A stretch of DNA of 57,118 nt, taken from a virus (taxonomy: Duplodnaviria; Caudoviricetes). The notes beneath the pieces are model-generated. The model worked only from the letters and a program-made list of their open reading frames with translations, was not told where the DNA came from and made no database searches. Within the stretch, counting starts at the first letter, position 1. Every line of letters starts with the position of its first letter. A program made the translations under genes and the position numbers. Shown in pieces: positions 2,700-15,312 of the stretch. The DNA is taken from the IMG/VR virus record IMGVR_UViG_3300042934_001339, positions 1 through 57,118 of that record; one strand, written 5' to 3'.

Positions 2700-3245
2700 T
2701 CAGGGGACCTTCGCCCTCACGTCGTCATATGTGCGTTCACAGGTCAGTCCGGCGACGCGGGCTCGGTCCGCAATTTCTGCAATCTCTCCAGCTCGCTCGC
2801 TAACCCGGCCGAGCATGTAGGCGAGCAGATCGACGGCGTCGGCCCCTGCCGGGCTTCCGTCGGTAAGGGCGGGATCGCGACCTGCTGCGGAGCTAGCCAG
2901 CGCGTCGACGCGCTCGAGCAACCCGCGGCGCTCAGCACGAGCACGAGCAGCATCCCCCGCCGCAGCAGCGGCCATTTTCTGTGCGTCATTTCGCTGTTTC
3001 TCCACGGCTTGGGTGCGCCGTCTTTCTTCGGTTCTTGCCGCTTCAATAGCGACGACGGTGGCCTGGGCTTGATCGTCCCTTGCTTTTGCATAGTCTCGTT
3101 CGATGTCGGCAATTTCAGCGCGATACCGCCAGCCTTGCGCGGTCCACGCCGCGCCGCCGACCAGCAATGCGCCAGCTGCCGCGGCGGCCGCATACCCGCG
3201 CCAGTCGGCCATCAGGCTGACGAGCTTCTTGCCGGCGGCCATCAT
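2700..3245 (-). CDS. i-spanin (Rz-like, DUF2514-type lysis protein)
   Basis: N-terminal TM (AAAGALLVGGAAWTAQGWRY), Ala-rich coiled coil, C-terminal AGLTCERTYD; ATG overlaps the endolysin stop. Confidence 0.85.
   Translation of the reverse strand: MMAAGKKLVSLMADWRGYAAAAAAGALLVGGAAWTAQGWRYRAEIADIERDYAKARDDQAQATVVAIEAARTEERRRTQAVEKQRNDAQKMAAAAAGDAARARAERRGLLERVDALASSAAGRDPALTDGSPAGADAVDLLAYMLGRVSERAGEIAEIADRARVAGLTCERTYDDVRAKVP
2744..2989 (-). CDS. o-spanin (Rz1-like lipoprotein) nested in the Rz gene
   Basis: MTHRKWPLLRRGMLLVLVLSAAGC lipobox, Pro-rich body, extra Cys residues, alternative frame inside Rz. Confidence 0.75.
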   Translation of the reverse strand: MTHRKWPLLRRGMLLVLVLSAAGCSSASTRWLAPQQVAIPPLPTEARQGPTPSICSPTCSAGLASELERLQKLRTEPASPD

Positions 3246-3652
3246 GCTGCTGCCTGCCAGCCGCGGGGCAGTTGGAAATGTGGTCCGTCCTTGAACGACT
3301 TCCAGTCCCCGCCCCACTCCACCGGCACGCCCAGATCCGCGGCGCAGGCCTTCACCACGTCGGCCAACTCTTTGAACCTGGCCCATTCGTTCCACGGAAT
3401 GACGCCCCCGACAAGCGGCGCCAGATCGACGGCATGGCCGTAGCCGTCGGCCTGCCGAAGGTGCAGACCATTCATGGTCTGGCTCTTGCCTGCGGCCACC
3501 AGCTCGCGCTGCCGTTCGGGCGTCCGCAGACCTTCCACCACAGTGAAATCCTCCGCCGTTCTTTCAATCGCCAGTTTGACGATCTCAACAAGCTGGGGGT
3601 GCACCCCCTCAAGGCGCTGTAGACTGCGCGCCGACAAGGCAAATCCAGACAT
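3242..3652 (-). CDS. Endolysin, M15 family L-Ala-D-Glu peptidase
   Basis: LEGVHPQL, EGLRT.ERQ, H...GHAVDL, WGGDW, DGPHFQL motifs. Confidence 0.92.
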   Translation of the reverse strand: MSGFALSARSLQRLEGVHPQLVEIVKLAIERTAEDFTVVEGLRTPERQRELVAAGKSQTMNGLHLRQADGYGHAVDLAPLVGGVIPWNEWARFKELADVVKACAADLGVPVEWGGDWKSFKDGPHFQLPRGWQAAA

Positions 3653-3710: not shown

Positions 3711-6700
3711 TCAGGGGCGCGCGGCCCGCGCGCGCTCGTCCGCAAGCATGGCCAGCCGGTTGCGCGCGCGGTACAACAGATCCAGCTGAGCGCGCTTCTC
3801 CTCCGGCTGCAGGTCGGCGCGCTCCAGTGCTTTGATCCTGGTGTTCACGTCCCGCAGTTGGCTATCCGCAGCCTTGAACAGAGCGCGCACGCGCAGTTGG
3901 TCATCGCCAGCCAGCTCGCGCGCGCGCTCCAGGTCGCCCAGCTCGCGGGCCTGCGAATACGCCGCATAGACCTGGTTCACTTCCCGCTGCTCGTCGTAGA
4001 AGCGCTGGATGTACTTGCTGCTTCGTGGGTCGGCCTCCTTCACGAAATCGCCCACCACGAACCAGTTGTCTACGCGGCCAAGGTCGCGGCGGGGGTTCTC
4101 CGGCAAGCCCGACAGCGGCCGTGCCAGATAGTCCGATACGTTCAGCGCCTGGGTGCCCAGCCAGCCGAAGTACCCGCGCGCCAGGTGCTCGACCCGCTGT
4201 GGCGAGACACCCAGCGCCCGGCCCAGCGCCACCGCGCCGGCGGAAGTTGATGCCGTGAAGCGATCGCCAGCTGGCAGGCGCTGCTGGCCCACGCTGTCGA
4301 TGTCGCGCTCGCGGAAGGAGTCATAGTTGAACGCCGCTTCCATGGCGGGCTTCACCAGTTGGGGCACGGGGTTCATGGATAGCTGCTCCGTCAGGATGGC
4401 GCCCACAGTGCGCCCAAAATCCCGCAGGCGGAAATCGTCGCCGCCAAACGCCAGCTCGGTGCCGCGTTCGACCACGCTGCCCAGGGCACCAATTTCGAAC
4501 GGCTTGGGGATGTAGACGAACTGGTTGGTGCCAGGCAGCTTGGTGATCCAGAACGAGTTGCGCGCCCAGTCCGGCAACTGCTTGTAGTCGTCGTCGTCCT
4601 TCATGCCCAGGTAGAGCAGCGCCGACGCCATCGCGACCGCGCCCGTCACGGCGGCAAAGCGCGCAGGATCTGCGGCTGCGCCGCGCCCCAGCTTGTACAT
4701 GCCCTGCAGGCGAGCGTTGAAGAACGGCACGACCTGGGACAACAGGCGGATTGCCGAGAACGTGCCGCCGGCGGTGAAGTCCATCAAATCCCGCGCGGCG
4801 TAGCTGGCCTCCAGGTGGCTGCGCCCGGCTTTTCGCGCCTGCTGGTAGATCGCCGCGCGGTTGATCGTCTCCGCCCTATCGCCGGTTTCCTGGTACCAGT
4901 CAAAGGCCTTGCGCAACGCCCGCCCCATACCCGCGGGCGAAGTGATGACGTCGTCGGGGTGGGCACCCAGCTCGTCCACCAGACGCTTCACGTTGCGGGC
5001 GTTGCCGTCGTTGAAGGATCCGAACCGGACTGCGCCGCCGCCCGCCATCAGCCGGCGCCAGGTGTCGCTTTCGGACCCCGTCGCCTTCCAGCCTTCGGCC
5101 AAGTTGCGCAGCGGGTTGACGGACAGATTGCTGTCGATCGACATGGCCTGGATGGTGTCGCGCAGCAGGTTGCGCACGCGGAACGTCGGACTGATCGTCA
5201 CGCCCACCGTCAGCGCCTGCTTGAACTTGCGGGCCGCCTTGGTGAATGGGTCATTGGACCCCACGTAGTGCAGGGCCGTGAGCGCGTTCATCACCAGCGG
5301 ATCGTCCACTAGGTAGTGCCGCTCCTGACCGTTGAACATGGCCCGCACGCTCCCGCGCTCGGCTTGGCGCGCGCGCGTGGCAATGCCAAGCTTTTCCGCC
5401 TCTTGCAGGGCGCCCTGCGCGGCCAGGTTCTTCATGCTGGCCGAAAGCAGGTGGGACCAGTTCGACACCGTGTTGGCGACCAAGTCGCCCAGCTTGTCGG
5501 TGCCGCCCTTCAACCGCTTGTAGGCGTGCTGGCCGACTAGGCCGCCGATTTGGCCAGGCCCCATCGTGCCGGTGGCATCGTCCTCCATAACACGGTAGAA
5601 CGGGACGTAAAACTCGCTCTCCCACAGCTGGCGGGCGCTGGGATCGACCAGGCCAGCCTCCTGCGCCACGTCCAGCACAGAGCGCTGCAGGGCATTGAAC
5701 TCGGCTAGCGCCTCACGGTAAACCGCCGCGCGGTCGCGGCCATCGGCCATCTTGCCGGCGGCGAGCCGTTTGCCAGCCGCGATATCCTCGGGAGTGAACA
5801 GGCGTTCGCGCGACGCAGCTTCCGCCTTGGCGCCCGGCCACTTCGCCGCTTCTGCACGCGCCGCGGCTTCGTTGGCAAAGCGCTCGGTCACGCCATTGTC
5901 GAATCGCACCTGCCATTCCGCGGCCAGGCGCTCGGCTCGGTTGGCTGCAATCCAGGCCATGAAATGATCGTGCTCGCCATTCAGGCCGGCCAGGATCTCG
6001 GCCAAGCCCTTCCCGCCGGCGGTGTCCAGCGCGCCGTCCTGCAACTTGACGGCACCATGGCGTACCAAATACTCCGCTGCGCCGTCTGCACCCTTGGACA
6101 GGCGCGCCTGCATGTAGGCGGTTGCGCTGATGCCCTTGAGCGGCGCGAACTGGTCGAAGATGCCCTGCACCAGCTTGGCCTGCCACCGGTCGGACACTTT
6201 GACCAAGCGCTCCTTGATTGGGTCTTGCTCAGCCCATGCGCCGATCTTGCCCAGGAACTTGTTGCGCTGGCGGCGCTCGATGTCTGAAAGCGATTCGCCG
6301 GTTCGCGCGACCTTAGCGCCGCGCTTGGGCTCGCGTGGGGCGCGCGGTGCCATCGGCGGCACGGCCGCCGTGCCGGATGCGGCGCGCGACTCCATCGGCC
6401 CAGAAGTAGAAAGCCCCGCACTGGGCGGGGCTTCTTCGTTGGGGTCGCGGCTTAATGGGTTCGCGGCTTCTTCAGCAGCTCTCCTGCCAGCTCCGCCGAT
6501 TCGCGCATGTCTTTCAGCAGCAATTCGACCTCGGACGGCGTCAGGCGCGTCATGCTTGGCGAGGTAGCGACCTTCAGATTCTGTGAGCGCGTCGAAGCCG
6601 CGGCCAGTGGCTTCGCGGAAAGCTTGTTCGACATCGCCATAGCGGGCTCGCAGTTCTGACAGGGTTTCGGGGGACAGCCGCAAGGTAGCACTGTAGAGTT

Positions 6701-9700
6701 TGCCCGTCAACGCGAAGGACCCAACCACCCGGCCCCCATTCTGTTCGATGTGCGACGCCAGCGCGGCGAGGGTGCCGCCTTGCGTCAGGGTGTCATCGAC
6801 CAGGAAATACGGCTTGCCGGGCTGCACCGCCCCGTCGAACTCGGGCTGTTGGAAGATCCGCCCCAGGCCATCGAGCGCAGTGCGCTTCGCCTTGACGGAC
6901 TGATAGATGCCCACCTCCAGAGGCAGGCCAAGCCGCTCGGCCAAGGCGGTAGCCGTGACGACGGGAATCTTGTTGTGGCCAGCGGCTTCAATTGCCAAGA
7001 CCGGCACGACTGAGGGCTGTTCACCCCCGATCGCTTCCCGGACCTGCGCGACGGCGTCGTCAGACAGCACGTCCTGCACCAGACGCACGGCGGCCGCAGT
7101 GTCGCCGGCCTTGGCCGCAGGATGGTCCGGATGCTTGCCGGCCGTTCCCAGCCGTTGCCCGATGACCACGGACGGAAGTGAGACAGGGTCGGCGCCGCGG
7201 CGGGACTCTGCTGCCAGCGAGGCAGCTGCCTCTTGCATGCCGGCGCTCGCGCGCGCTGCGGGCGCGCGCTTCAAGAACCGGCCCGCATCGATCACCATCT
7301 GCTTGATGTCGATGTTGGTCAGCTTGAGATTCAGACCGAGCCGTCGCAGCGCAGCCCGGATCTTGCCGTAGAGCCGTTCCAGGAAGATGGGGCGGCTGCC
7401 CTGCTCCGCCATACGGGCCAGGACTTCGCGGGCCCGGTTCTCGGCGGAATAGTCGGGATAGCGCAGCGTCACCGCTTCGAACGTGGCGTAATGAGGATGA
7501 TCCGGCCCAGCGTTGCGCGGGATGTGCGCGCCGTCAGGCGCCCGCGCCAGGCGGCGCACGTCCGCCAGAACCTCGCCGAAGCGATCACCCAGCAGCGCCT
7601 CCACGCCGAAATGTCCCACCACCTCGTGCGTCAGGACCTGGTGCAGACGCTCAGCCGTCGGTAGGTTCTCGGCCACCAGGTAGATGCGTCCGCCGTCATT
7701 GGCGGGGTAATAGGCGCCCTCGGCGAGAGTAGACGGCTTGGCCCCTTCCGGGATCTGGTCCACGCTTTCCACGACCGACACACGAAGGTTGGCTGCGCCG
7801 GGCAGATTGCCCATGAACTCGGCCGCCTGGCGGCGCGCTTCCGCCACCTCCAGGCCGGGCCCACCTTCGCCGCGACTCTCCAGGCCAATCCGCCCATCCT
7901 CGCCGGGCACCTGCTCCACGGTTTGGAAAAAGCGATCGAACGCAGCGCGCACCGGCGCGATTTCGGCGGCAGTCGGATAGGGATAGCTGGCCTCGTCGCC
8001 GAATGCCTTTTCATTGACCACGTTCGCCAGATAGTCGTTGGCTGCGCCCTGGTCGACCAGCTTGGCGATCAGGTAGCTTTCAAACGCCCGCGCCGACAGC
8101 TCGCGGCCCGTGGACCAATAATCCTTTGCCCGGCGCTCGTCCAGTTTGCTGGACCGCTCCCGCATGCCAATCAGACCAATAGTCTGCTTCAGATTACCGA
8201 AGGCCTCAGCCATGGCCGGCCGGATTCCGTCGGTTCGGTTGCCAGTCTCCGAGGCGTAGCCCGCCAGCGCTCCGCCCCGACGCGAGAAATAATTGTCCAG
8301 CCCGTGCCACCATTCATGGCCCAGCGAGCCAGCGCCGCGACCCTTCGTCAGGTTGATCACCACCTGGCCCGGCTCGTAGTGGGCCACAGCTGCATCCACG
8401 CCGCCCCGGCCGCGTGCGCCGAACGCCAGCCCCAATTCCCCGTTCAGGGACAACGCACGTGCCGGCAGGCCAAGCACGCCGGCCATATCCATGAGTGCGT
8501 CGTATGCCTCGTTCAGGTCGGCTTGGCGGCGACCCCCTTCGACGTAATTGCCGAACTGCACGCCGCGGAACCCAAATGCCTCTGTGAACCGCTCCGGCGA
8601 GACGTCGGCGCCGTCACGATGGTCCACGCCCACGCGCGGCGAATTCGAACCGCGGCGATGAGCCGGCACCTCCTTAAGCTTCTCCAGCTTTTCGGCCAGG
8701 CGGTCCTTGTTCTCTGCCAAATACGCCCGCGCTGCCTTGATATCAGTGAAGTGCTCCAGGTCGACATGCACACGCCCGACCTTCTTGCCGATGTAGAACC
8801 CGGGCATACGCGGACGCGAGTAAATATCGAATCGCACCTCGCGCTCGGGCGCCGCTCGCTCATCCTGCTGCGCGGCAAAGCGCTGGAACTCAGCGATCGC
8901 CGCCTCAGCAGTATCGCCGTGGCCCAGCATACGCGGCCAGTTACCCAGGCTTGAAGACGCACCGCGTTGCACACTCCAGATCGTCCGCGGCGGGTCGTGG
9001 CGCACGCCCGCGAACACGCTGTACTGGCCAGATTCCAGCGTGACGCCCCGCAGGGACTGTCCGTGCCCCAAGGCTTCATAGAGCCGCGCACGTCCGTATA
9101 CCTTGCGAAGTTCGGGGGGCTTCTCCAGCCCGGCGCGAATGTCGCCGCTCGAGACCTTTCCGCTTAGGAGCGTGCCGGAAAACTCGCGCAGCCGTTGGAC
9201 TTGATCCGTCCATCCACGCAGCTTCCAGCTGCTGCGCGGCTTGGCCGGCACTTCATCGCGGGCCGCACGCGCCAATGCCACCAGGAATGGATCGGCGCCA
9301 TCCTCGAGCAGCTTGGCATAGTTGGGTTCGGGCCAGGATTCGGCGAGGGTATGGTTGGCGATTGGCAGCGTTTCGGCCAGGCGCATGCGTTCGGCGTATT
9401 GCTGCGCGTAATGCTTGCGGGCACCCCGCAGCGTTTCGCCGAAATCTTCGATCTTGCCGTCGGCATTGGACGACGGCCGCTCCGCGGACGTCTTTGGGGC
9501 TGCTTCCTGGGTGGGCGCGTTGACCGAGGCCAGTTCCTGCTGGCCTCTCGCCGCGGCCTGGTCTGGGGCGCGGTCGCTACCTGTCAGGACGAAGTCGTCT
9601 CGAGAGGAATCTGCGACAGCGCGCTGCTCCGCCTCGCGCTCACGCGCAGCGGTCTTTCGGTCGACCTCGGCCTGCTCCTGGGCCGCATTGCGCAGACCCT

Positions 9701-12700
9701 GGGGCGTCGGCTGCTCAAGAGTCAGCTCTTGCGCGCTGCCTTGCGGATCACTTCCTGAGCCATCTCCAGAGTTTCCGGCGACTGCGCTCTGTCCACTGCG
9801 TCTAGGATCGACGTCACGCCGTCCACCATACGCTGCTGCTGCGGACTTAAGTGCGTCGGCAAAGGCGGCGGGGGACTCTTCGGTTTGAATTGCCGCGCGT
9901 TCGATGAGGGCTTCTCGGGCTTTTGCATTCGTGATTCCTTGTTCGTGGAGATAGGCCGCGGCATCAAACTGCGCAGCCAAATCGTCCATCGTCGTGTCTG
10001 CAGGCATCTTACCAATGACCCCGAAGAGATCATTGGCCAGCTTTTCCTTGTCGACCTTGTCAAACCGCTCGGCTTCGCGCTCAGCATAGGCGCGGCGAGC
10101 CGCTTCGTCCATTTGCTCCAGCGTGTAGACCGCCTCACCTTCCAGGGCTTCGCGTACGCGGTCCATAGCGGTGCCCGACAGATCGACGGTGTCGCCGTCC
10201 ATCGGCAGATATCCCGCCTGCTGCATGGCCTCCACCAGCATGTCGGCATCCATGCCGCCCCTGCGGAACAACCCGGGCGCACGGCGATTGGCCAGGTGCG
10301 CGCGATCGCCGTAGATATCGGCTGCCAGCTCCGGCCGGATACCGCCTGCTTGCCGCACCATCTGGAGAAAGCCGCGCCGGGCATCACGCCCGAAATCCGC
10401 GGCGGTGGACCCGGGCTCTGCGGCGGGCGCTTGCCCGGTGCGCGGCCGGGCGACGAATCCCCCCTCGACTGGCACCGGCTCCGCGTTTCCATGCGCGGTG
10501 GCGGCGCGCTGTGCAGCGCCTCGCGTGAGAAACGGCCGGCCATTTTTGGCGGTGATATCGGGCTCATACACCAGCGTGCCAAGCCCGGATTCTGCCGCGG
10601 GCCGCGTGGTGTCGCTATCGGCCAGCCAGCGCTTGAACGTGGGCATGTCCATCTGCGTGACCCTGCCCATACCCCGCCAGTCCGGCGTATAGCTGTCGCG
10701 ATATGCGCGTTCAGCGTCCTCCCGGCTGTCGTAGCCCAACATCACCTTGGATTCATCGAACCCGCGGTGCCCAGGGTCCACCTGGTCGATCACGAACACC
10801 GGGCCGCTGAAGTTGGGCGACGTGCCCGGCCGCACGAATACGTCGACCTGGTCACCGTCTGCGCCTTCCGTGCGGCGGATGTAGCCGTAGTGGCCCGCCA
10901 TCCGGTTCACCCATGCGGTACCGTCCGGCGCGGTGCCGCGACGCTCTGACCCCTCCGGATTCTCGATCGACAACTCCAGGCCAGCCACGCGCGTGCGCCC
11001 GACCTTGTAGTTGCCGGCCTCCTTCTGAGCTTCCGACGGCTCTGGCCGGCCATTCGTGGGAGAGGTCGCTGCCTCGTTCGCAGCTGTGTCGATCGCCGCG
11101 CCTGGATGCCGCTCGCCGGCGGCGGCCACATCGGGCGTCAGGCCCATGGCCGCCTGGCGTTCCAGCTCGGCGCCACGCTGGCCGGCGGTCGCGGCAACGC
11201 CGGCCGCATCCACCTGGTACACGGGCGCCGGCAACGCGCCCCGCGCAGGAGCACCGGCGAGGGCCGCGCCGACACCCTCGGCGAGCTGCTCGGCCGTGTA
11301 AGGCTGCATGCCGTTTTCGTGACGGATTATGGCCGTCGTCAGGCGTTCCAGCGTGCTGGGGTCGCTCAGGTCCAGCCGCTCGCCAGCGTCAACGCCCAGT
11401 GCTCGCGCGACCTCCTGGACATAGGCGTTCGTGTCATTCTCCGACGGAGGCGCCCAGCGATTCACGATGTCCTGCACGGTGTCCAGGCCATGCTGGCGTT
11501 GATAAGTCAGCAGGTTGCGTGCGGTCGCCCGAATACCCGCCTCCGGCGACTCGAAGGTGGCAAACCGAGAATCGTTGCCCTCGACTTCTCCGGCAAAGCC
11601 GACACCCTTCTGGATATTGCCCGGGTTGTTGTTGCGGATCCCGCGCGGCGCGTTGGTCGGCATGCGCCAAGACTCGCGGGCCGTGAAGCCATCGCCGGCG
11701 GCATAGCCATTCGGAGCTGGCAGCACATCACGTCGCGCCGGCCTATCCGTCGGCTGACGCGGCGCATCATTGGGCAGCGCAGGCGTTGGAGGCAGCGGGT
11801 CTGAGGCCAACTCCGATAGGCGAACGAAATACCCACGACCATCGCCCGTCCGGATCCGCGCCAAAGGCTCCCCGCCTGGCCGCGCAGTGGCAGCGTTCCG
11901 CTCCAAGCCCAGAAACTCGACCGGCAGTTCCTGACCATTCTGACGCAGATAAATCTGCTGTCCCCGCGTGAATGAGTCGCCCGCCTTGGTCTGGCCAGGC
12001 GTTGCCGCCTGCGCCTGTGCGGCCGACCGTTGCGCCTTGGCCAGCTCGACCGCAGGCACGTACGACTCCCGCAGGTTCACGCGCACCCTGGCATATTGTT
12101 GCCCGTCGGCCCCTGCCTCCGGCTCCATGCGTATGAACTCCACCGGAACGCCGTTCCAAAAGACCTGCTCGCCTCGTTCATACATCGGCGTGGTCTGTGT
12201 CTGCTCGGCAGCCCCATCCGCGTGGACAGGCGCTTCCCTTCCTCGGCCCGGACGCACGATGAAGCCATTATCGTGGCGCATGACCTGGGCATCGCCACCC
12301 AGCTCCGCCGCACGCTGGCGCGCCGCGCTGGCCGTGACAAATGGCATGCCGCTGGCGTGCATCACGTCGCCCGCCTCCAGGGAAGGCGCCACCTGCACCC
12401 CACGGCTGCGCACGCCATCGGCCGCGCCGTGCACGGCGCCTGGCCCCATGCCGGCGACAAACCCCAGAGCGGCGTTGCCGAACGATCCCTCCAGCGGGTC
12501 GAGGTTCATGCCCGCGCCCGCGTTGATGCCCGTCTGCGTCGCCACGCCTTCGCCGACTTCCTGGATGGCTTCCTCGGATCCGGCCAGGCCGGCGCGCCCC
12601 ACAGTCTGCGCGACCGCACCGCGGCCACCGAGCACGCGCCCAGCCGGCGACAGAATCCTGCCCGTCGCGGCGCCGCCCGCAGCGGATACCGGGACCGTAC

Positions 12701-13499
12701 GTGCAAACGCCGCGTCCTCGGCCTCGGTCCTCACGCGCGCCCGCGCCTGTGCGGCGGTGTAGCCCTGTGCCAACAGGTCCCGGAAGCTGGACGAAGCCGC
12801 GGCCAGTTGCTCGTCGTCCATCCCGTCGATAGTCTCGCGCGCTTGTTCGATGGCGTTACCGCCGCCCATCGCGCCGCCGGCGCCCGCTCCGGCCGCCATC
12901 CGCGCGCCGATCCCGGCAGGGCCAGCGATCGCTGAAGCCGCAATAGGGACCGCGCTGCTGCCCAGGGCGTTAAGGCCCTGCAGGGCCAGGCCCGACGCCG
13001 ATGGATTGCGCCCGAAGGTCCAGGTGTCGGGCTTGTCCAGATCGCCGCCGGGTTGCGAATCGGCCTCGCGCTGCTTGGCCTCGGGAGTGCGCGAATCGAG
13101 GATGCGCTGGCCCAGCCCATGGGTAGCGTCTGCCGCGTCTTCAAGGGGATTAGCGGGGACGTCCAGGCCAGCGTCAAAGGCTTGATTTAGCGCCGTCACG
13201 CCGACCCGGCCGAGACCTTCGGCTACCTTGCCGACCCCACGGACGGCGCTGCCCGCGCCCTTGATTGCGCCGCCGGCGAAGGTCTTGGGATAGTCGACGA
13301 ACTCGATGCCGCTGGCGTCCTGCTGCGGCTTCTGGAAGTCGGCAACACGGAACGTAAACGGGACGGTCATCGGAGCGGCGCCGGCGGGCGCCTTGGCGTC
13401 CGAGAATCGGACCTTCAGGTCCTCGCGGATGCCCTGATGGCGCGCGTCCACGTTGTCTTTGAACTCGATCCCCTCGTCGGGGCTTTCAAAGTTGTCCAT
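3711..13499 (-). CDS. Giant polyvalent virion/ejection protein (lysozyme-like, inorganic PPase-like, LPD5/LPD1-like, zincin HExxH, PRTase, LPD38-like domains)
   Basis: 3262 aa; motifs PRGIRNNNPGNI...HENG, EAQKEAGNYK...GADGDQVDVF, KIEDFGETLRGARK, GHEWWHGLD...ELSARAFE, HEVVGH, LVDDTLTQGGT, DDDYKQLPDW...IPKPFE. Confidence 0.88.
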   Translation of the reverse strand: MDNFESPDEGIEFKDNVDARHQGIREDLKVRFSDAKAPAGAAPMTVPFTFRVADFQKPQQDASGIEFVDYPKTFAGGAIKGAGSAVRGVGKVAEGLGRVGVTALNQAFDAGLDVPANPLEDAADATHGLGQRILDSRTPEAKQREADSQPGGDLDKPDTWTFGRNPSASGLALQGLNALGSSAVPIAASAIAGPAGIGARMAAGAGAGGAMGGGNAIEQARETIDGMDDEQLAAASSSFRDLLAQGYTAAQARARVRTEAEDAAFARTVPVSAAGGAATGRILSPAGRVLGGRGAVAQTVGRAGLAGSEEAIQEVGEGVATQTGINAGAGMNLDPLEGSFGNAALGFVAGMGPGAVHGAADGVRSRGVQVAPSLEAGDVMHASGMPFVTASAARQRAAELGGDAQVMRHDNGFIVRPGRGREAPVHADGAAEQTQTTPMYERGEQVFWNGVPVEFIRMEPEAGADGQQYARVRVNLRESYVPAVELAKAQRSAAQAQAATPGQTKAGDSFTRGQQIYLRQNGQELPVEFLGLERNAATARPGGEPLARIRTGDGRGYFVRLSELASDPLPPTPALPNDAPRQPTDRPARRDVLPAPNGYAAGDGFTARESWRMPTNAPRGIRNNNPGNIQKGVGFAGEVEGNDSRFATFESPEAGIRATARNLLTYQRQHGLDTVQDIVNRWAPPSENDTNAYVQEVARALGVDAGERLDLSDPSTLERLTTAIIRHENGMQPYTAEQLAEGVGAALAGAPARGALPAPVYQVDAAGVAATAGQRGAELERQAAMGLTPDVAAAGERHPGAAIDTAANEAATSPTNGRPEPSEAQKEAGNYKVGRTRVAGLELSIENPEGSERRGTAPDGTAWVNRMAGHYGYIRRTEGADGDQVDVFVRPGTSPNFSGPVFVIDQVDPGHRGFDESKVMLGYDSREDAERAYRDSYTPDWRGMGRVTQMDMPTFKRWLADSDTTRPAAESGLGTLVYEPDITAKNGRPFLTRGAAQRAATAHGNAEPVPVEGGFVARPRTGQAPAAEPGSTAADFGRDARRGFLQMVRQAGGIRPELAADIYGDRAHLANRRAPGLFRRGGMDADMLVEAMQQAGYLPMDGDTVDLSGTAMDRVREALEGEAVYTLEQMDEAARRAYAEREAERFDKVDKEKLANDLFGVIGKMPADTTMDDLAAQFDAAAYLHEQGITNAKAREALIERAAIQTEESPAAFADALKSAAAAYGGRRDVDPRRSGQSAVAGNSGDGSGSDPQGSAQELTLEQPTPQGLRNAAQEQAEVDRKTAAREREAEQRAVADSSRDDFVLTGSDRAPDQAAARGQQELASVNAPTQEAAPKTSAERPSSNADGKIEDFGETLRGARKHYAQQYAERMRLAETLPIANHTLAESWPEPNYAKLLEDGADPFLVALARAARDEVPAKPRSSWKLRGWTDQVQRLREFSGTLLSGKVSSGDIRAGLEKPPELRKVYGRARLYEALGHGQSLRGVTLESGQYSVFAGVRHDPPRTIWSVQRGASSSLGNWPRMLGHGDTAEAAIAEFQRFAAQQDERAAPEREVRFDIYSRPRMPGFYIGKKVGRVHVDLEHFTDIKAARAYLAENKDRLAEKLEKLKEVPAHRRGSNSPRVGVDHRDGADVSPERFTEAFGFRGVQFGNYVEGGRRQADLNEAYDALMDMAGVLGLPARALSLNGELGLAFGARGRGGVDAAVAHYEPGQVVINLTKGRGAGSLGHEWWHGLDNYFSRRGGALAGYASETGNRTDGIRPAMAEAFGNLKQTIGLIGMRERSSKLDERRAKDYWSTGRELSARAFESYLIAKLVDQGAANDYLANVVNEKAFGDEASYPYPTAAEIAPVRAAFDRFFQTVEQVPGEDGRIGLESRGEGGPGLEVAEARRQAAEFMGNLPGAANLRVSVVESVDQIPEGAKPSTLAEGAYYPANDGGRIYLVAENLPTAERLHQVLTHEVVGHFGVEALLGDRFGEVLADVRRLARAPDGAHIPRNAGPDHPHYATFEAVTLRYPDYSAENRAREVLARMAEQGSRPIFLERLYGKIRAALRRLGLNLKLTNIDIKQMVIDAGRFLKRAPAARASAGMQEAAASLAAESRRGADPVSLPSVVIGQRLGTAGKHPDHPAAKAGDTAAAVRLVQDVLSDDAVAQVREAIGGEQPSVVPVLAIEAAGHNKIPVVTATALAERLGLPLEVGIYQSVKAKRTALDGLGRIFQQPEFDGAVQPGKPYFLVDDTLTQGGTLAALASHIEQNGGRVVGSFALTGKLYSATLRLSPETLSELRARYGDVEQAFREATGRGFDALTESEGRYLAKHDAPDAVRGRIAAERHARIGGAGRRAAEEAANPLSRDPNEEAPPSAGLSTSGPMESRAASGTAAVPPMAPRAPREPKRGAKVARTGESLSDIERRQRNKFLGKIGAWAEQDPIKERLVKVSDRWQAKLVQGIFDQFAPLKGISATAYMQARLSKGADGAAEYLVRHGAVKLQDGALDTAGGKGLAEILAGLNGEHDHFMAWIAANRAERLAAEWQVRFDNGVTERFANEAAARAEAAKWPGAKAEAASRERLFTPEDIAAGKRLAAGKMADGRDRAAVYREALAEFNALQRSVLDVAQEAGLVDPSARQLWESEFYVPFYRVMEDDATGTMGPGQIGGLVGQHAYKRLKGGTDKLGDLVANTVSNWSHLLSASMKNLAAQGALQEAEKLGIATRARQAERGSVRAMFNGQERHYLVDDPLVMNALTALHYVGSNDPFTKAARKFKQALTVGVTISPTFRVRNLLRDTIQAMSIDSNLSVNPLRNLAEGWKATGSESDTWRRLMAGGGAVRFGSFNDGNARNVKRLVDELGAHPDDVITSPAGMGRALRKAFDWYQETGDRAETINRAAIYQQARKAGRSHLEASYAARDLMDFTAGGTFSAIRLLSQVVPFFNARLQGMYKLGRGAAADPARFAAVTGAVAMASALLYLGMKDDDDYKQLPDWARNSFWITKLPGTNQFVYIPKPFEIGALGSVVERGTELAFGGDDFRLRDFGRTVGAILTEQLSMNPVPQLVKPAMEAAFNYDSFRERDIDSVGQQRLPAGDRFTASTSAGAVALGRALGVSPQRVEHLARGYFGWLGTQALNVSDYLARPLSGLPENPRRDLGRVDNWFVVGDFVKEADPRSSKYIQRFYDEQREVNQVYAAYSQARELGDLERARELAGDDQLRVRALFKAADSQLRDVNTRIKALERADLQPEEKRAQLDLLYRARNRLAMLADERARAARP
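6401..6433 (-). terminator. Intragenic terminator-like hairpin inside the giant gene
   Basis: 9-bp stem AAGCCCCGC/GCGGGGCTT, 5-nt loop, followed on the minus strand by a T-rich tail (TTTCTACTTCT). Confidence 0.65.
6452..6640 (-). CDS. Candidate nested (overprinted) small protein after the PRTase domain; start may be 6640, 6634 or 6553
   Basis: Alternative frame ending MTRLTPSEVELLLKDMRESAELAGELLKKPRTH (amphipathic helix), flanked by a promoter and a terminator. Confidence 0.55.
   Translation of the reverse strand: MAMSNKLSAKPLAAASTRSQNLKVATSPSMTRLTPSEVELLLKDMRESAELAGELLKKPRTH
6682..6710 (-). promoter_or_regulatory. Intragenic sigma70 promoter
   Basis: TTGACG-N17-TACCTT with extended -10 TG. 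Confidence 0.55.
9722..9928 (-). CDS. Candidate nested (overprinted) 68-aa protein
   Basis: AAGGA RBS 7 nt before ATG; helical C-terminus LSPQQQRMVDGVTSILDAVDRAQSPETLEMAQEVIRKAARKS; extended -10 TGGTAAGAT at 10014-10006. Confidence 0.5.
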   Translation of the reverse strand: MQKPEKPSSNARQFKPKSPPPPLPTHLSPQQQRMVDGVTSILDAVDRAQSPETLEMAQEVIRKAARKS

Positions 13500-15312
13500 C
13501 TACACCTTCTCCGTTGGTGCGCCCCATGGCGGCGCGCGTGATTTCGGACCCTTCCGTGGCCCGTGCCCAACTGTCTGCGGCTGCCCGCTCCGCGGCCCGC
13601 GCCAGTTCGACGTCGTTCTCTGCCTGTTGCAGGAGGGCAGCGTGCCTGGCCCGTGCCTCGGGGCCGGCCTTCAGGCCCGGCGGCTTTGTCCGCAGCTGCC
13701 GCACAACCGCTTCCGCCTGACGCAACTGCGCCCGGGCGGAATCCAGTTGCACGCCTTCGGGCCGGTCAGCGTCCTGGCCAGAGGTCGAACCGCCTGATGC
13801 TGGCGCGCTGGCCAGGCCTGCGCCGACCGTCGTGCCTGCCGCGAGAGCGGCCCCTGCAGGACCTGCGGCCGCAGTCGCCGCCGACGGCGCGGCCTGTGAG
13901 GTGCCTGCGCTCGGCTGCTCCCCTGGTGCGGACGCCGGTGTGGCTGAAAGCCGCGCGCGAATCTTTTCCTGCACCTCTTTGGGCACGACAGAAACAGGCA
14001 GGCGGATAACCTGGCCCTCGTGCTCAACACCGAACCCAAACTGACGGTCGCCCAGGCGGATCGGCACGATGTCCGCCGTCCCAGCCTGGACCTGCTGGGC
14101 AAGGGAAGCCAGGTTTCCGGCGGTGAGTACTTCCCCTTCCGGTGTGCCGGCGTTCAAGCGGTTGATGTTCTCGCCGGTGGCGATGATTCCGCTGACCTGC
14201 TTGCGCTGGTCGTCGCCCAGGCCTTCCAGGCTGTCGACCTTAAAGATCCGCATGACGTGGTTCGCGAAGTCCTTGTTGGACGTGACCATCTTGGGCTTGC
14301 CGGCTTCGCTTCCCTCTGCCCCTACGCGCATGCCCCCTTTGCCATCGGGCACATACAGCGTCTGATCCTTGCCTAGGACACGCGGCTTTCGCAGCTCCTC
14401 ATCGCTGCGCAGTTGGCTATCCAGCAACTTGTCGCGGCGCTTTTGCTCCGCTTCCCACAGCAATTTCGCTTGTTGCGCGACCATCGCCTGCTGCGCCTTG
14501 GGGTCGCTCACGCTGCGCACGAAGTTCTGCAGCATGAACTCGCTGATGGGCTGCTGGACCGGCTTGCCAGTAGCGGTGTCCACGCCGACGAAGTCGTAAA
14601 CAGGCGCGCCGCCGGCCTGCTCGGCACGCTTGTTGATGGCGGTCACCTCGATGCCGCCGGGCATGAATCGGTTCACGAACGGCACATAGGAATTGGGGTC
14701 GCCCGTCAACTGATAGCGGCTCTGCGCGGCGTTGAAAGCCTGTTCCCGATGCTGGCCGACAAACTTTTCGCGGTCGGCCAGCAGTTGCATGGCGCGCCCG
14801 GGCTCGCCCAGCTCAAGTGCCTTCCGGTAGCCCCGCGTCAATCCGTCCGCGATCTGGCCGAATTCGCCGCCGCCGAGATAGTCAGCGGGTTGCGGACTTT
14901 TTTTTTCAGCCGATCCCGCCATTGCTGGGGCGACCGGCTGGCGCAGCCCGGTCCCCCCGAATGCACCTGGCGCCGAATCCGCCAAGCCCACGGCGCTGGC
15001 ATCCGGCGCCCGCGCCGTATCCATCGCCGCAGGCGCACCGACCGCCACGGGTTGCAACCCCCACGTGTCGCCCACGGCCGAACCATTCGGGACAGACTGC
15101 GAGGCCTGCACGGGTTCCAGGCCGGCCGGGGCATTTTTCTGGGCCGCACCGCCAAGCAGTTGGGCTGCGATCTCTTGGTCGACCTTCTTGCGTTTCTCGG
15201 CATCCGCTCTGGCGATCTTCCTGTCCTCGGCCACATCGAACGCCCGCGCGATGTCCATTCCATTGCGCAGCCCGTCGGCTAGGCCGCCGGCAAAACTTCC
15301 GTAATTCGCCAT
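13486..15312 (-). CDS. Putative internal virion/DNA ejection protein
   Basis: 608 aa, N-terminal GSFAGGLADGL, Ala/Gln-rich, lies between two other ejection genes. Confidence 0.6.
   Translation of the reverse strand: MANYGSFAGGLADGLRNGMDIARAFDVAEDRKIARADAEKRKKVDQEIAAQLLGGAAQKNAPAGLEPVQASQSVPNGSAVGDTWGLQPVAVGAPAAMDTARAPDASAVGLADSAPGAFGGTGLRQPVAPAMAGSAEKKSPQPADYLGGGEFGQIADGLTRGYRKALELGEPGRAMQLLADREKFVGQHREQAFNAAQSRYQLTGDPNSYVPFVNRFMPGGIEVTAINKRAEQAGGAPVYDFVGVDTATGKPVQQPISEFMLQNFVRSVSDPKAQQAMVAQQAKLLWEAEQKRRDKLLDSQLRSDEELRKPRVLGKDQTLYVPDGKGGMRVGAEGSEAGKPKMVTSNKDFANHVMRIFKVDSLEGLGDDQRKQVSGIIATGENINRLNAGTPEGEVLTAGNLASLAQQVQAGTADIVPIRLGDRQFGFGVEHEGQVIRLPVSVVPKEVQEKIRARLSATPASAPGEQPSAGTSQAAPSAATAAAGPAGAALAAGTTVGAGLASAPASGGSTSGQDADRPEGVQLDSARAQLRQAEAVVRQLRTKPPGLKAGPEARARHAALLQQAENDVELARAAERAAADSWARATEGSEITRAAMGRTNGEGVDGQL

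Follow-up and report, generated by a model that had tools for sequence, protein, structure and literature searches.

A probable overprinted gene within the giant polyvalent virion gene of an Achromobacter phage

Introduction

The question raised by the locus described here is whether a very long phage gene contains a second, much smaller gene written over it in another reading frame, and if so what the product of the smaller gene might do. The locus lies in the IMG/VR virus record IMGVR_UViG_3300042934_001339, which was analysed as a single stretch of 57,118 bp (hereafter the window) in which the genes of interest are on the minus strand. The long gene (the host gene) encodes a polyvalent virion protein of 3262 aa. 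The smaller frame, nested gene 1, is a 68-codon open reading frame (ORF) that lies wholly inside the host gene, on the same strand but in another frame (+1), and begins with an ATG preceded by the Shine–Dalgarno (SD) sequence AAGGA; the coordinates of these and other features are collected in Table 1. The openness of such a frame is not in itself beyond chance. What is beyond chance is the combination of a conserved SD and ATG, a conserved stop, constraint on synonymous sites and a dip in the G+C content of third codon positions (GC3) of the host frame. From these sequence comparisons we consider it highly probable that nested gene 1 is a translated gene under selection, and probable that it is a real nested gene whose translation begins by internal initiation.

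Nested gene 1 would thus be an overprinted, unannotated coding gene in the +1 frame of the giant polyvalent virion gene of an Achromobacter phage. Ribosomes would start internally on the mRNA of the giant gene, at an unstructured patch of low G+C content carrying AAGGA-N7-AUG, and the product of 66–68 aa would consist of a basic, proline-rich disordered tail followed by an amphipathic helical hairpin. More tentatively, this hairpin may bind the C-terminal helical sub-domain (host residues ~1143–1217) of the protein module encoded just upstream.

Results and discussion

Conservation of the start, frame and stop

A preliminary description of the window had pointed to AAGGA-N7-ATG, with the ATG at 9928, and to a 68-aa ORF in the alternative frame, and every letter of these is found in its place on the minus strand. 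Relatives of the locus were drawn from GenBank (the phage Achromobacter phage CF418P1), from IMG/VR contigs, from three Achromobacter prophages and from metagenome contigs, and the nucleotide identity of their host genes between clades is 0.75–0.92. When the peptide was searched for in 26 loci, 22 gave full-length matches starting with Met, the other four (L028–L031) not covering the region. These 22 are CF418P1 and 21 further loci, several of them identical or near-identical contigs; the 21 hold 18 distinct peptides besides that of the window itself. All 22 covering loci have CAAGGAAT-N5-ATG followed by an intact frame of 66–68 codons, and in each the stop falls on the same Leu codon of the host frame. 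The preliminary description had named a non-conserved ribosome-binding site or ATG, or stops in the frame among close relatives, as what would speak against a gene, and SD, ATG and frame instead hold throughout the 22 loci. The more distantly related phage L032, in which the domain encoded upstream is ~60 % identical, has AAAGGAAT-N5-ATG and a 56-codon frame that ends at the same Leu, and the first helix of its peptide is recognizable.

The ATG is invariant in all 23 sequences, despite variation in the two host residues whose codons contain it, the first being N or D and the second A, V, G or E. A stop is found six codons upstream of it in CF418P1 and in 15 of the 21 other loci, where the ATG is therefore the first possible start. 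The codons on which the SD is written are unusual for the host gene, where CAA makes up 23 % of Gln codons and GGA 8 % of Gly codons. Of 206 columns with an invariant Gly, 18 also keep the same codon throughout, and GGA is that codon at the SD alone; among 60 invariant Gln columns only two are invariantly CAA, and the SD codon is one of them. The stop shows a compensated pattern. Where the next host residue has a codon starting with A, the Leu is encoded by CTG (giving TGA) or CTA (giving TAA), and before an initial G it is encoded by CTA, a rare codon (3 % of Leu codons), which yields TAG; failing this, the nested frame would run on for a further 45–257 codons.

The start also lies in a setting suited to initiation. 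In a codon alignment of 10 diverged relatives, the window included, the region from −40 to +20 around the ATG falls among the weakest-folded 0–2 % of the 60-nt segments of the host gene in 10 of 10 (fraction 0.000–0.020), and in the window its minimum free energy is −5.8 kcal/mol against a gene mean of −20.5 kcal/mol. The local G+C dip of the preliminary description is likewise present, with 0.54 at 9925–10074 and 0.64–0.78 further out, and SDs comparable to AAGGA precede other genes of the same phage.

The same description had read TGGTAAGAT as an extended −10 element. The letters are at 10014–10006, but a promoter belonging to the nested gene is not supported: in the same columns six relatives of the first alignment have ATCGACGCC/T (four) or ATTGGCAAA/ATCGGCAAA (two), a promoter scan of 9400–10400 returned no promoter-like site, and TGGTAAGAT has no −35. 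An extended −10 promoter was rejected on these grounds, and TGGTAAGAT is probably not a promoter. Since no conserved promoter of its own was found, the template for nested gene 1 would be the mRNA of the giant gene.

A tblastn search of GenBank phages found CF418P1 only, and searches of 401 genomes from the order and 401 from the family to which one host genome belongs gave only prophages already known (in one and two genomes). Of the distant domain homologues P0034 and P0036–P0038, two (P0034 and P0037) were sought by name among viral contigs, and no DNA encoding them was found. The database proteins P0006 and P0007 are frame fusions at the nested gene 1 locus, the one type passing from the nested into the host frame near the stop and the other from the host into the nested frame just past the ATG. 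In one IMG/VR contig (L022:9949-11715) the giant frame has 589 codons from stop to stop and is broken or mis-assembled; nested ORF 1 is still intact there, with 68 codons, despite the short giant frame.

Signals of dual coding

Counted from a TTG at 10582, 286 codons of the alternative frame are free of stops in this genome. Such openness was rejected as evidence, since long conserved stop-free +1 stretches are common in this GC-rich gene, and the comparison was based on other properties. A gene-wide screen of the 10-sequence alignment gave 33 ATG-led, same-strand, alternative-frame ORFs of at least 50 codons, and nested gene 1 is alone among them in having the ATG, an intact frame and the same stop each in 10 of 10 sequences. 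The runner-up elsewhere in the gene, at 6640..6452, scores seven on each of the three counts.

The pattern of variation is also displaced towards the nested frame. Gene-wide, pairwise variability at host codon positions one, two and three is 0.12, 0.09 and 0.40, and the segment 9851–9761 is the sole one of 2976 in which position one, which is position three of the nested frame, exceeds position three (by +0.06; the next best value is −0.08). Amino acid identity is greater in the +1 frame than in the host frame in 45 of 3067 segments, all of which lie at 9833–9728 and 6521–6416. Over nested residues 29–68 there are 12 invariant columns and a mean identity of 0.67, against 6 and 0.61 for the host frame in the same DNA, and over the first 28 nested codons the invariant columns are equal (6 in each frame).

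Base composition points the same way. Over nested gene 1 the GC3 of the host frame is 0.47, compared with 0.78 gene-wide, and the G+C profile of the nested frame is a normal one (0.61/0.47/0.75 at positions one to three). The two segments of lowest GC3 in the window are two nested ORFs, of which the other, nested gene 2, is described below. In each of the nine other aligned sequences the GC3 of nested ORF 1 ranks lowest or next to lowest, and three that are without the second ORF (L009, L015 and L019) have no comparable second dip there. Three sequence hallmarks of an overprinted gene are found at this locus, namely a frame wholly inside another gene, conserved start signals of its own and reduced synonymous variation with an altered composition of the host frame.

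The nested product and its relation to the host frame

AlphaFold2 (with an alignment of 19 sequences) predicts a coil for residues 1–28 of the peptide and helices at 29–48 and 51–66, with a mean predicted local distance difference test score (pLDDT) of 78 and ~84–91 in the helices; the helical C-terminus proposed earlier is thus borne out by the model. The peptide lacks both Cys and a signal sequence. A word search of 5.8 billion sequences with the peptide returned four copies of the peptide itself and nothing else, and in the window there is no paralogue, nested ORFs 1 and 2 being mutually dissimilar.

Codons 1–28 of the nested gene are written over conserved helices of the host frame (ITNAKAREALIERAAIQ...), which are still recognizable in homologues of 34–39 % identity, and codons 29–68 over a variable, poorly conserved linker of the host protein that is rich in G, S and R, in keeping with the disordered S/G linker that had been noticed under the 3′ half. 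The two frames are therefore complementary, the structured half of one lying over the unstructured half of the other. It had also been supposed that the ORF follows the preceding domain. This needs correction: the first ~27 codons of the ORF overlap the last conserved helices of that domain.

A predicted partner in the preceding domain

The domain that ends over the start of nested gene 1 (host residues 1036–1232) was considered uncharacterized from the first, and no Pfam family was found for it: the search yielded noise only (DUF494 at an E-value of 0.14), and in the ESM Atlas recognition was low and the clusters unnamed. All of its homologues belong to other giant proteins of phages or prophages. 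The label 'effector', which the preliminary description had given to it, is unproven for a domain without a known family.

That description had further suggested that the nested gene encodes a partner of the domain, and one in silico binding test of this idea was passed, which supports binding but does not establish it. A complex was predicted between the nested peptide (alignment of 19 sequences) and host residues 1033–1229 (alignment of nine). The score was 0.83 against 0.42 for the best control, a margin of +0.41; the mark used for this test had been reached by 58 of 80 solved complexes and by 2 of 110 mismatched pairs. Between runs at least 84 % of the contacts recur, and the pLDDT of the partner is at least 64. 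Peptide residues 27–51, which hold helix 1, are predicted to dock on host residues 1143–1217, and the best-defined contacts are made by the conserved peptide residues 37–48. The predicted contacts are not an artefact of shared codons, because the best-defined host residues are encoded upstream of the overlap. On this modelling we tentatively favour binding of the peptide to the helical end of the preceding domain, with a confidence that falls a little short of even. The peptide would then be a cis-encoded partner of the module, whose part in the producing cell could be that of a chaperone, assembly factor or inhibitor, and overprinting would let the gene for the partner adjoin its module while the polyprotein stays uninterrupted.

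In three relatives (L038, L040 and L041) host residues ~977–1879 and the nested ORF are lost together. This joint loss is uninformative about a partnership because the ORF physically overlaps the 3′ end of the domain.

Weighing of the alternatives

A number of observations weigh against our interpretation of nested gene 1, both as a translated gene and as the gene for a partner protein. In all 10 relatives there are +1-frame stretches without stops of 170, 146, 122, 110, 88 and 77 codons, and the periodicity of variation in the nested frame is weak (0.26/0.30/0.36). All of the DNA relatives belong to one Achromobacter phage and prophage group, plus L032, so that the 22 loci are not independent of one another, and the peptide of L032 largely lacks the second helix. 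No family was found for the peptide in Pfam (E-values up to 10) or PHROGs (limit 0.01), an exhaustive profile search of 1.84 billion representatives gave four copies or fusions and one repeat-protein artefact, with no homologue beyond copies of the peptide, and Foldseek found no structural match in the PDB at E-values up to 0.001. Among RNA data, parts of the stretch occur only in assembled metatranscriptome contigs (Logan; 19 listed, with shares of no more than 0.29), from which starts, strand and translation cannot be read. The fusions P0006 and P0007 imply 1-nt indels in degraded or error-prone copies, and indels thus occur at this locus. As to the partnership, the AlphaFold2 model of the domain is too poor for a fold search (pLDDT 59, mostly helical), the control in which the peptide was kept and the domain swapped still reached 0.42, so that the helix is somewhat sticky, and the complex test used alignments of our own making, for which the calibration holds roughly.

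Some of these points would be expected if nested gene 1 were a chance open frame in GC-rich DNA, whose conservation follows from common descent and from selection acting on the host protein: long stop-free stretches are common to all 10 relatives, the relatives are all of one phage group, and homologues were not found elsewhere. Selection on the host frame, however, does not explain the rare codons of the SD, an ATG maintained over variable host residues or the compensated stop. The fall of host-frame GC3 to 0.47 comes exactly over the ORF, just one of the 33 candidate ORFs behaves in this way, and the nested frame is better conserved than the host linker encoded by the same DNA; we therefore regard a chance frame as improbable. 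A programmed +1 ribosomal frameshift, by which a truncated isoform of ~1250 aa with a helical tail would be made and AAGGA would serve as a stimulator, seems more improbable still. In prfB, frameshifting involves an SD-like element upstream of the +1 frame, and the arrangement here resembles it; the frame is moreover open far upstream in the window and in three relatives, and P0007 is a fusion of just this kind. The ATG that is invariant in 23 sequences is nevertheless not needed for shifting, the stop six codons upstream of it interrupts the frame in 15 of 21 loci and in CF418P1, and inspection by eye showed no recognizable slippery or stop-codon shift site in the stretch from that stop to the ATG. 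Like initiation sites, the region is unstructured, and we read P0007 as the result of a 1-nt deletion in a broken copy of the gene. It is harder yet to credit that the constraint stems from an element at the nucleotide level, whether an RNA structure, an internal promoter or a site for regulation or packaging, with no second frame. Reduced synonymous variation is by itself no proof of coding, and TGGTAAGAT is present in this genome; but the consensus fold from RNAalifold is weak (−25 kcal/mol over 267 columns; covariation term −1.07) and contains no convincing conserved structure that would explain the constraint, no promoter-like site was found and the −10 is not conserved. The signals are also specific to a frame: the ATG, the compensated stop, a GC3 dip that spans the ORF, and a most variable position that is position three of the nested frame.

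A different alternative accepts the gene and doubts its partner. The product might act elsewhere, on a target in the bacterial host or on another phage protein, the tolerant linker having been merely a cheap birthplace for a new frame. Overprinted genes typically arise over a disordered older frame, according to passages in the reviews by Pavesi (PMC8227390, PMC6195259). The peptide is an orphan, its helix scored 0.42 with an unrelated protein, and its co-occurrence with the domain is forced by their physical overlap. On the other side stand the complex prediction, which exceeded the best control by 0.41 and in which the runs agreed on at least 84 % of contacts, the placing of the best-defined contacts on the conserved residues 37–48, and a second nested ORF that has the same relation to another module. 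We think that a product acting elsewhere is a serious possibility, if not a favoured one, and the interpretation that we prefer is the internally initiated nested gene with a product that may bind the adjoining module.

The host gene and its setting

The host protein has Pfam domains InPase (residues 823–959), LPD5 (1497–1641), LPD1 (1786–1863) and LPD38 (2969–3130), all above cut-offs, and a weak, sub-threshold match to PRTase at 2180–2266. PHROGs profiles recognize a transglycosylase-like stretch at residues 609–777 and give long matches to other giant virion and 'DarB-like' proteins. On one side the gene is flanked by a virion structural gene and on the other by endolysin and Rz-like spanin genes. 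Because several LPD and effector domains are joined in one giant polypeptide, and because of its genomic position, the host gene is a polyvalent virion protein gene in the sense given in the main text of Iyer et al. (2017; PMC5512222).

The gene is mosaic among its relatives. In L038, L040 and L041 it is without host residues ~977–1879, and in others (L009 and L015–L020) a different module replaces the PRTase-like one. Directly upstream of it, at 13486–15312 on the minus strand, is a 608-aa ORF with no PHROG match at E-values up to 1e-5. The endolysin (3242–3652) and the Rz-like spanin ORF (2700–3395, minus strand) overlap as listed.

Table 1. Positions in the 57,118 bp window of the host gene, the nested genes and associated features
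Feature	Coordinates	Strand	Basis or remark
Host gene, 3262-aa polyvalent virion protein	3711..13499	(−)	Pfam, PHROGs
Uncharacterized, mostly helical domain, host residues 1036–1232 (GFLQMVRQAGGIRPE...AGYLP...)	9804..10394	(−)	No Pfam family
Predicted docking surface, host residues 1143–1217	9849..10073	(−)	Peptide residues 27–51 (helix 1); complex prediction
Putative 'extended −10' TGGTAAGAT	10006..10014	(−)	Present here, not conserved
Shine–Dalgarno AAGGA, 7-nt spacer to ATG	9936..9940	(−)	Host-frame codons CAA (Gln) and GGA (Gly)
Translation-initiation region, −40 to +20 around the ATG, unstructured and of low G+C	9909..9968	(−)	Minimum free energy
Nested gene 1, ATG at 9928 to TGA at 9724–9722	9722..9928	(−)	68 codons, +1 frame of host gene, isoelectric point ~10
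Nested gene 1, codons 1–28, basic Pro/Ser/Lys-rich tail, predicted coil	9845..9928	(−)	AlphaFold2
Nested gene 1, codons 29–68, predicted helical hairpin	9725..9844	(−)	AlphaFold2
Nested gene 2, +1 frame, 62 aa (MAMSNKLSAKPL...LTPSEVELLLKDMRESAELAGELLKKPRTH), without a clear Shine–Dalgarno	6452..6640	(−)	Frame-identity inversion, GC3

Further nested reading frames

The runner-up of the screen, nested gene 2, covers the end of the PRTase-like module together with the linker that follows. It is present in 7 of the 10 aligned sequences, the window included, and these are exactly the ones with the PRTase-like module; in the three with another module it is replaced by stops. Its locus is the only other place with an inversion of frame identity and holds the second-lowest GC3 dip of the window. 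The preliminary description had proposed as a rule that an effector domain is followed by a nested partner gene, and here the same gene provides a second instance, tracking another module.

A screen for GC3 dips was extended to 44 distinct giant genes among the loci collected. Dips with a z-score of −3 or below occur in 38 of the 44, and in 33 an SD-led alternative-frame ORF lies under the dip, many of these ORFs being nested gene 1 in close relatives. A third +1 ORF, of 64 codons (MSQLPQYLQSAV...), unrelated to the others and led by GAGGT, is found in the giant virion genes of 35 other viral contigs (L047–L108, e.g. L047:567-761). Its family has 28 distinct peptides and lies upstream of the InPase domain, under a GC3 dip, and in 35 of 35 the host frame has no stop within 300 nt to either side. 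Sharp dips of host-frame GC3 thus mark both of the nested ORFs here and this third family of 64-aa ORFs. Giant polyvalent virion genes may be compound loci, in which modules carry their own +1 overprinted partner across the module end and the linker; we offer this as a conjecture, possible rather than likely.

Relation to known systems

Small ORFs hidden in larger genes are known from several systems. In Bacillus subtilis, comS is nested out of frame inside srfAB, and the likeness lies in a small functional ORF hidden out of frame in a giant multi-module gene; comS, however, is a regulator unrelated to the synthetase function, whereas the product here is predicted to bind the adjoining module. 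Immunity genes of polymorphic toxins and chaperones of type III secretion are examples of toxin–immunity and effector–chaperone pairs, in which a small partner is encoded beside the domain that it binds, as is predicted here. Their partners are separate downstream genes, whereas ours is overprinted, and because the preceding domain is not known to have a toxic or enzymatic activity we do not claim membership of these classes. The gene Rz1 is wholly embedded in the +1 frame of Rz. These spanin genes of phage lambda, for which passages in PMC5295617 may be consulted, establish that embedded phage genes exist, and share with nested gene 1 a small same-strand +1 gene with its own start inside a larger phage gene; their products are also thought to bind. 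Rz1 differs in being a secreted lipoprotein with a lipobox Cys, where the nested peptide has neither Cys nor signal sequence, and the gene that contains nested gene 1 encodes a 3262-aa polyvalent protein and not an i-spanin, the phage having its own Rz-like gene at 2700–3395. There is no sequence similarity between Rz/Rz1 and the nested peptide. An outer-membrane spanin of the Rz1 type was accordingly rejected as an identity for the product, the peptide lacking Cys and the host gene being no spanin.

Overprinted, or de novo overlapping, viral genes have been reviewed by Pavesi (PMC8227390, PMC6195259). As portrayed in passages of these reviews, such a gene is a second frame in an existing one, with an orphan, partly disordered product restricted to one lineage, which is what we see here; most documented cases, however, are from small RNA or ssDNA viruses under size pressure, whereas this is a 57-kb tailed phage, and the frame is apparently tied to one module of a modular protein, with a second ORF in the same gene. 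The polyvalent proteins of phages and conjugative elements were described by Iyer, Burroughs, Anand, de Souza and Aravind (2017; PMC5512222), and the host gene is like those of their main text in uniting InPase, LPD5, LPD1, LPD38 and a PRTase-like module in one chain. It differs in its nested genes, which the main text does not describe; overlapping genes, frameshifts, alternative frames and internal starts do not occur in that text, supplements aside, and these may list the unnamed domain. A literature search, which did not cover supplements, found no description of genes nested in polyvalent virion genes and did not find CF418P1. Embedded +1 genes are therefore known in phages, but their nesting in polyvalent virion genes is apparently not in print.

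Implications

Genes inside genes go unreported by gene callers, and the record of CF418P1 has the giant gene alone, as a 'putative portal'. The GC3 dip offers a cheap screen for nested genes in GC-rich phages that needs only a single genome. If polyvalent virion proteins routinely carry nested partner genes, phage proteomes would be under-counted, and the modular exchange of effector domains would have a built-in co-transfer of the partner: each module would move together with its chaperone or antidote when phages swap modules. The nested peptides would then also be handles on the roles of many unnamed modules, and a partner that binds, and perhaps silences, a domain would point to an activity of that domain that needs control in the producing cell.

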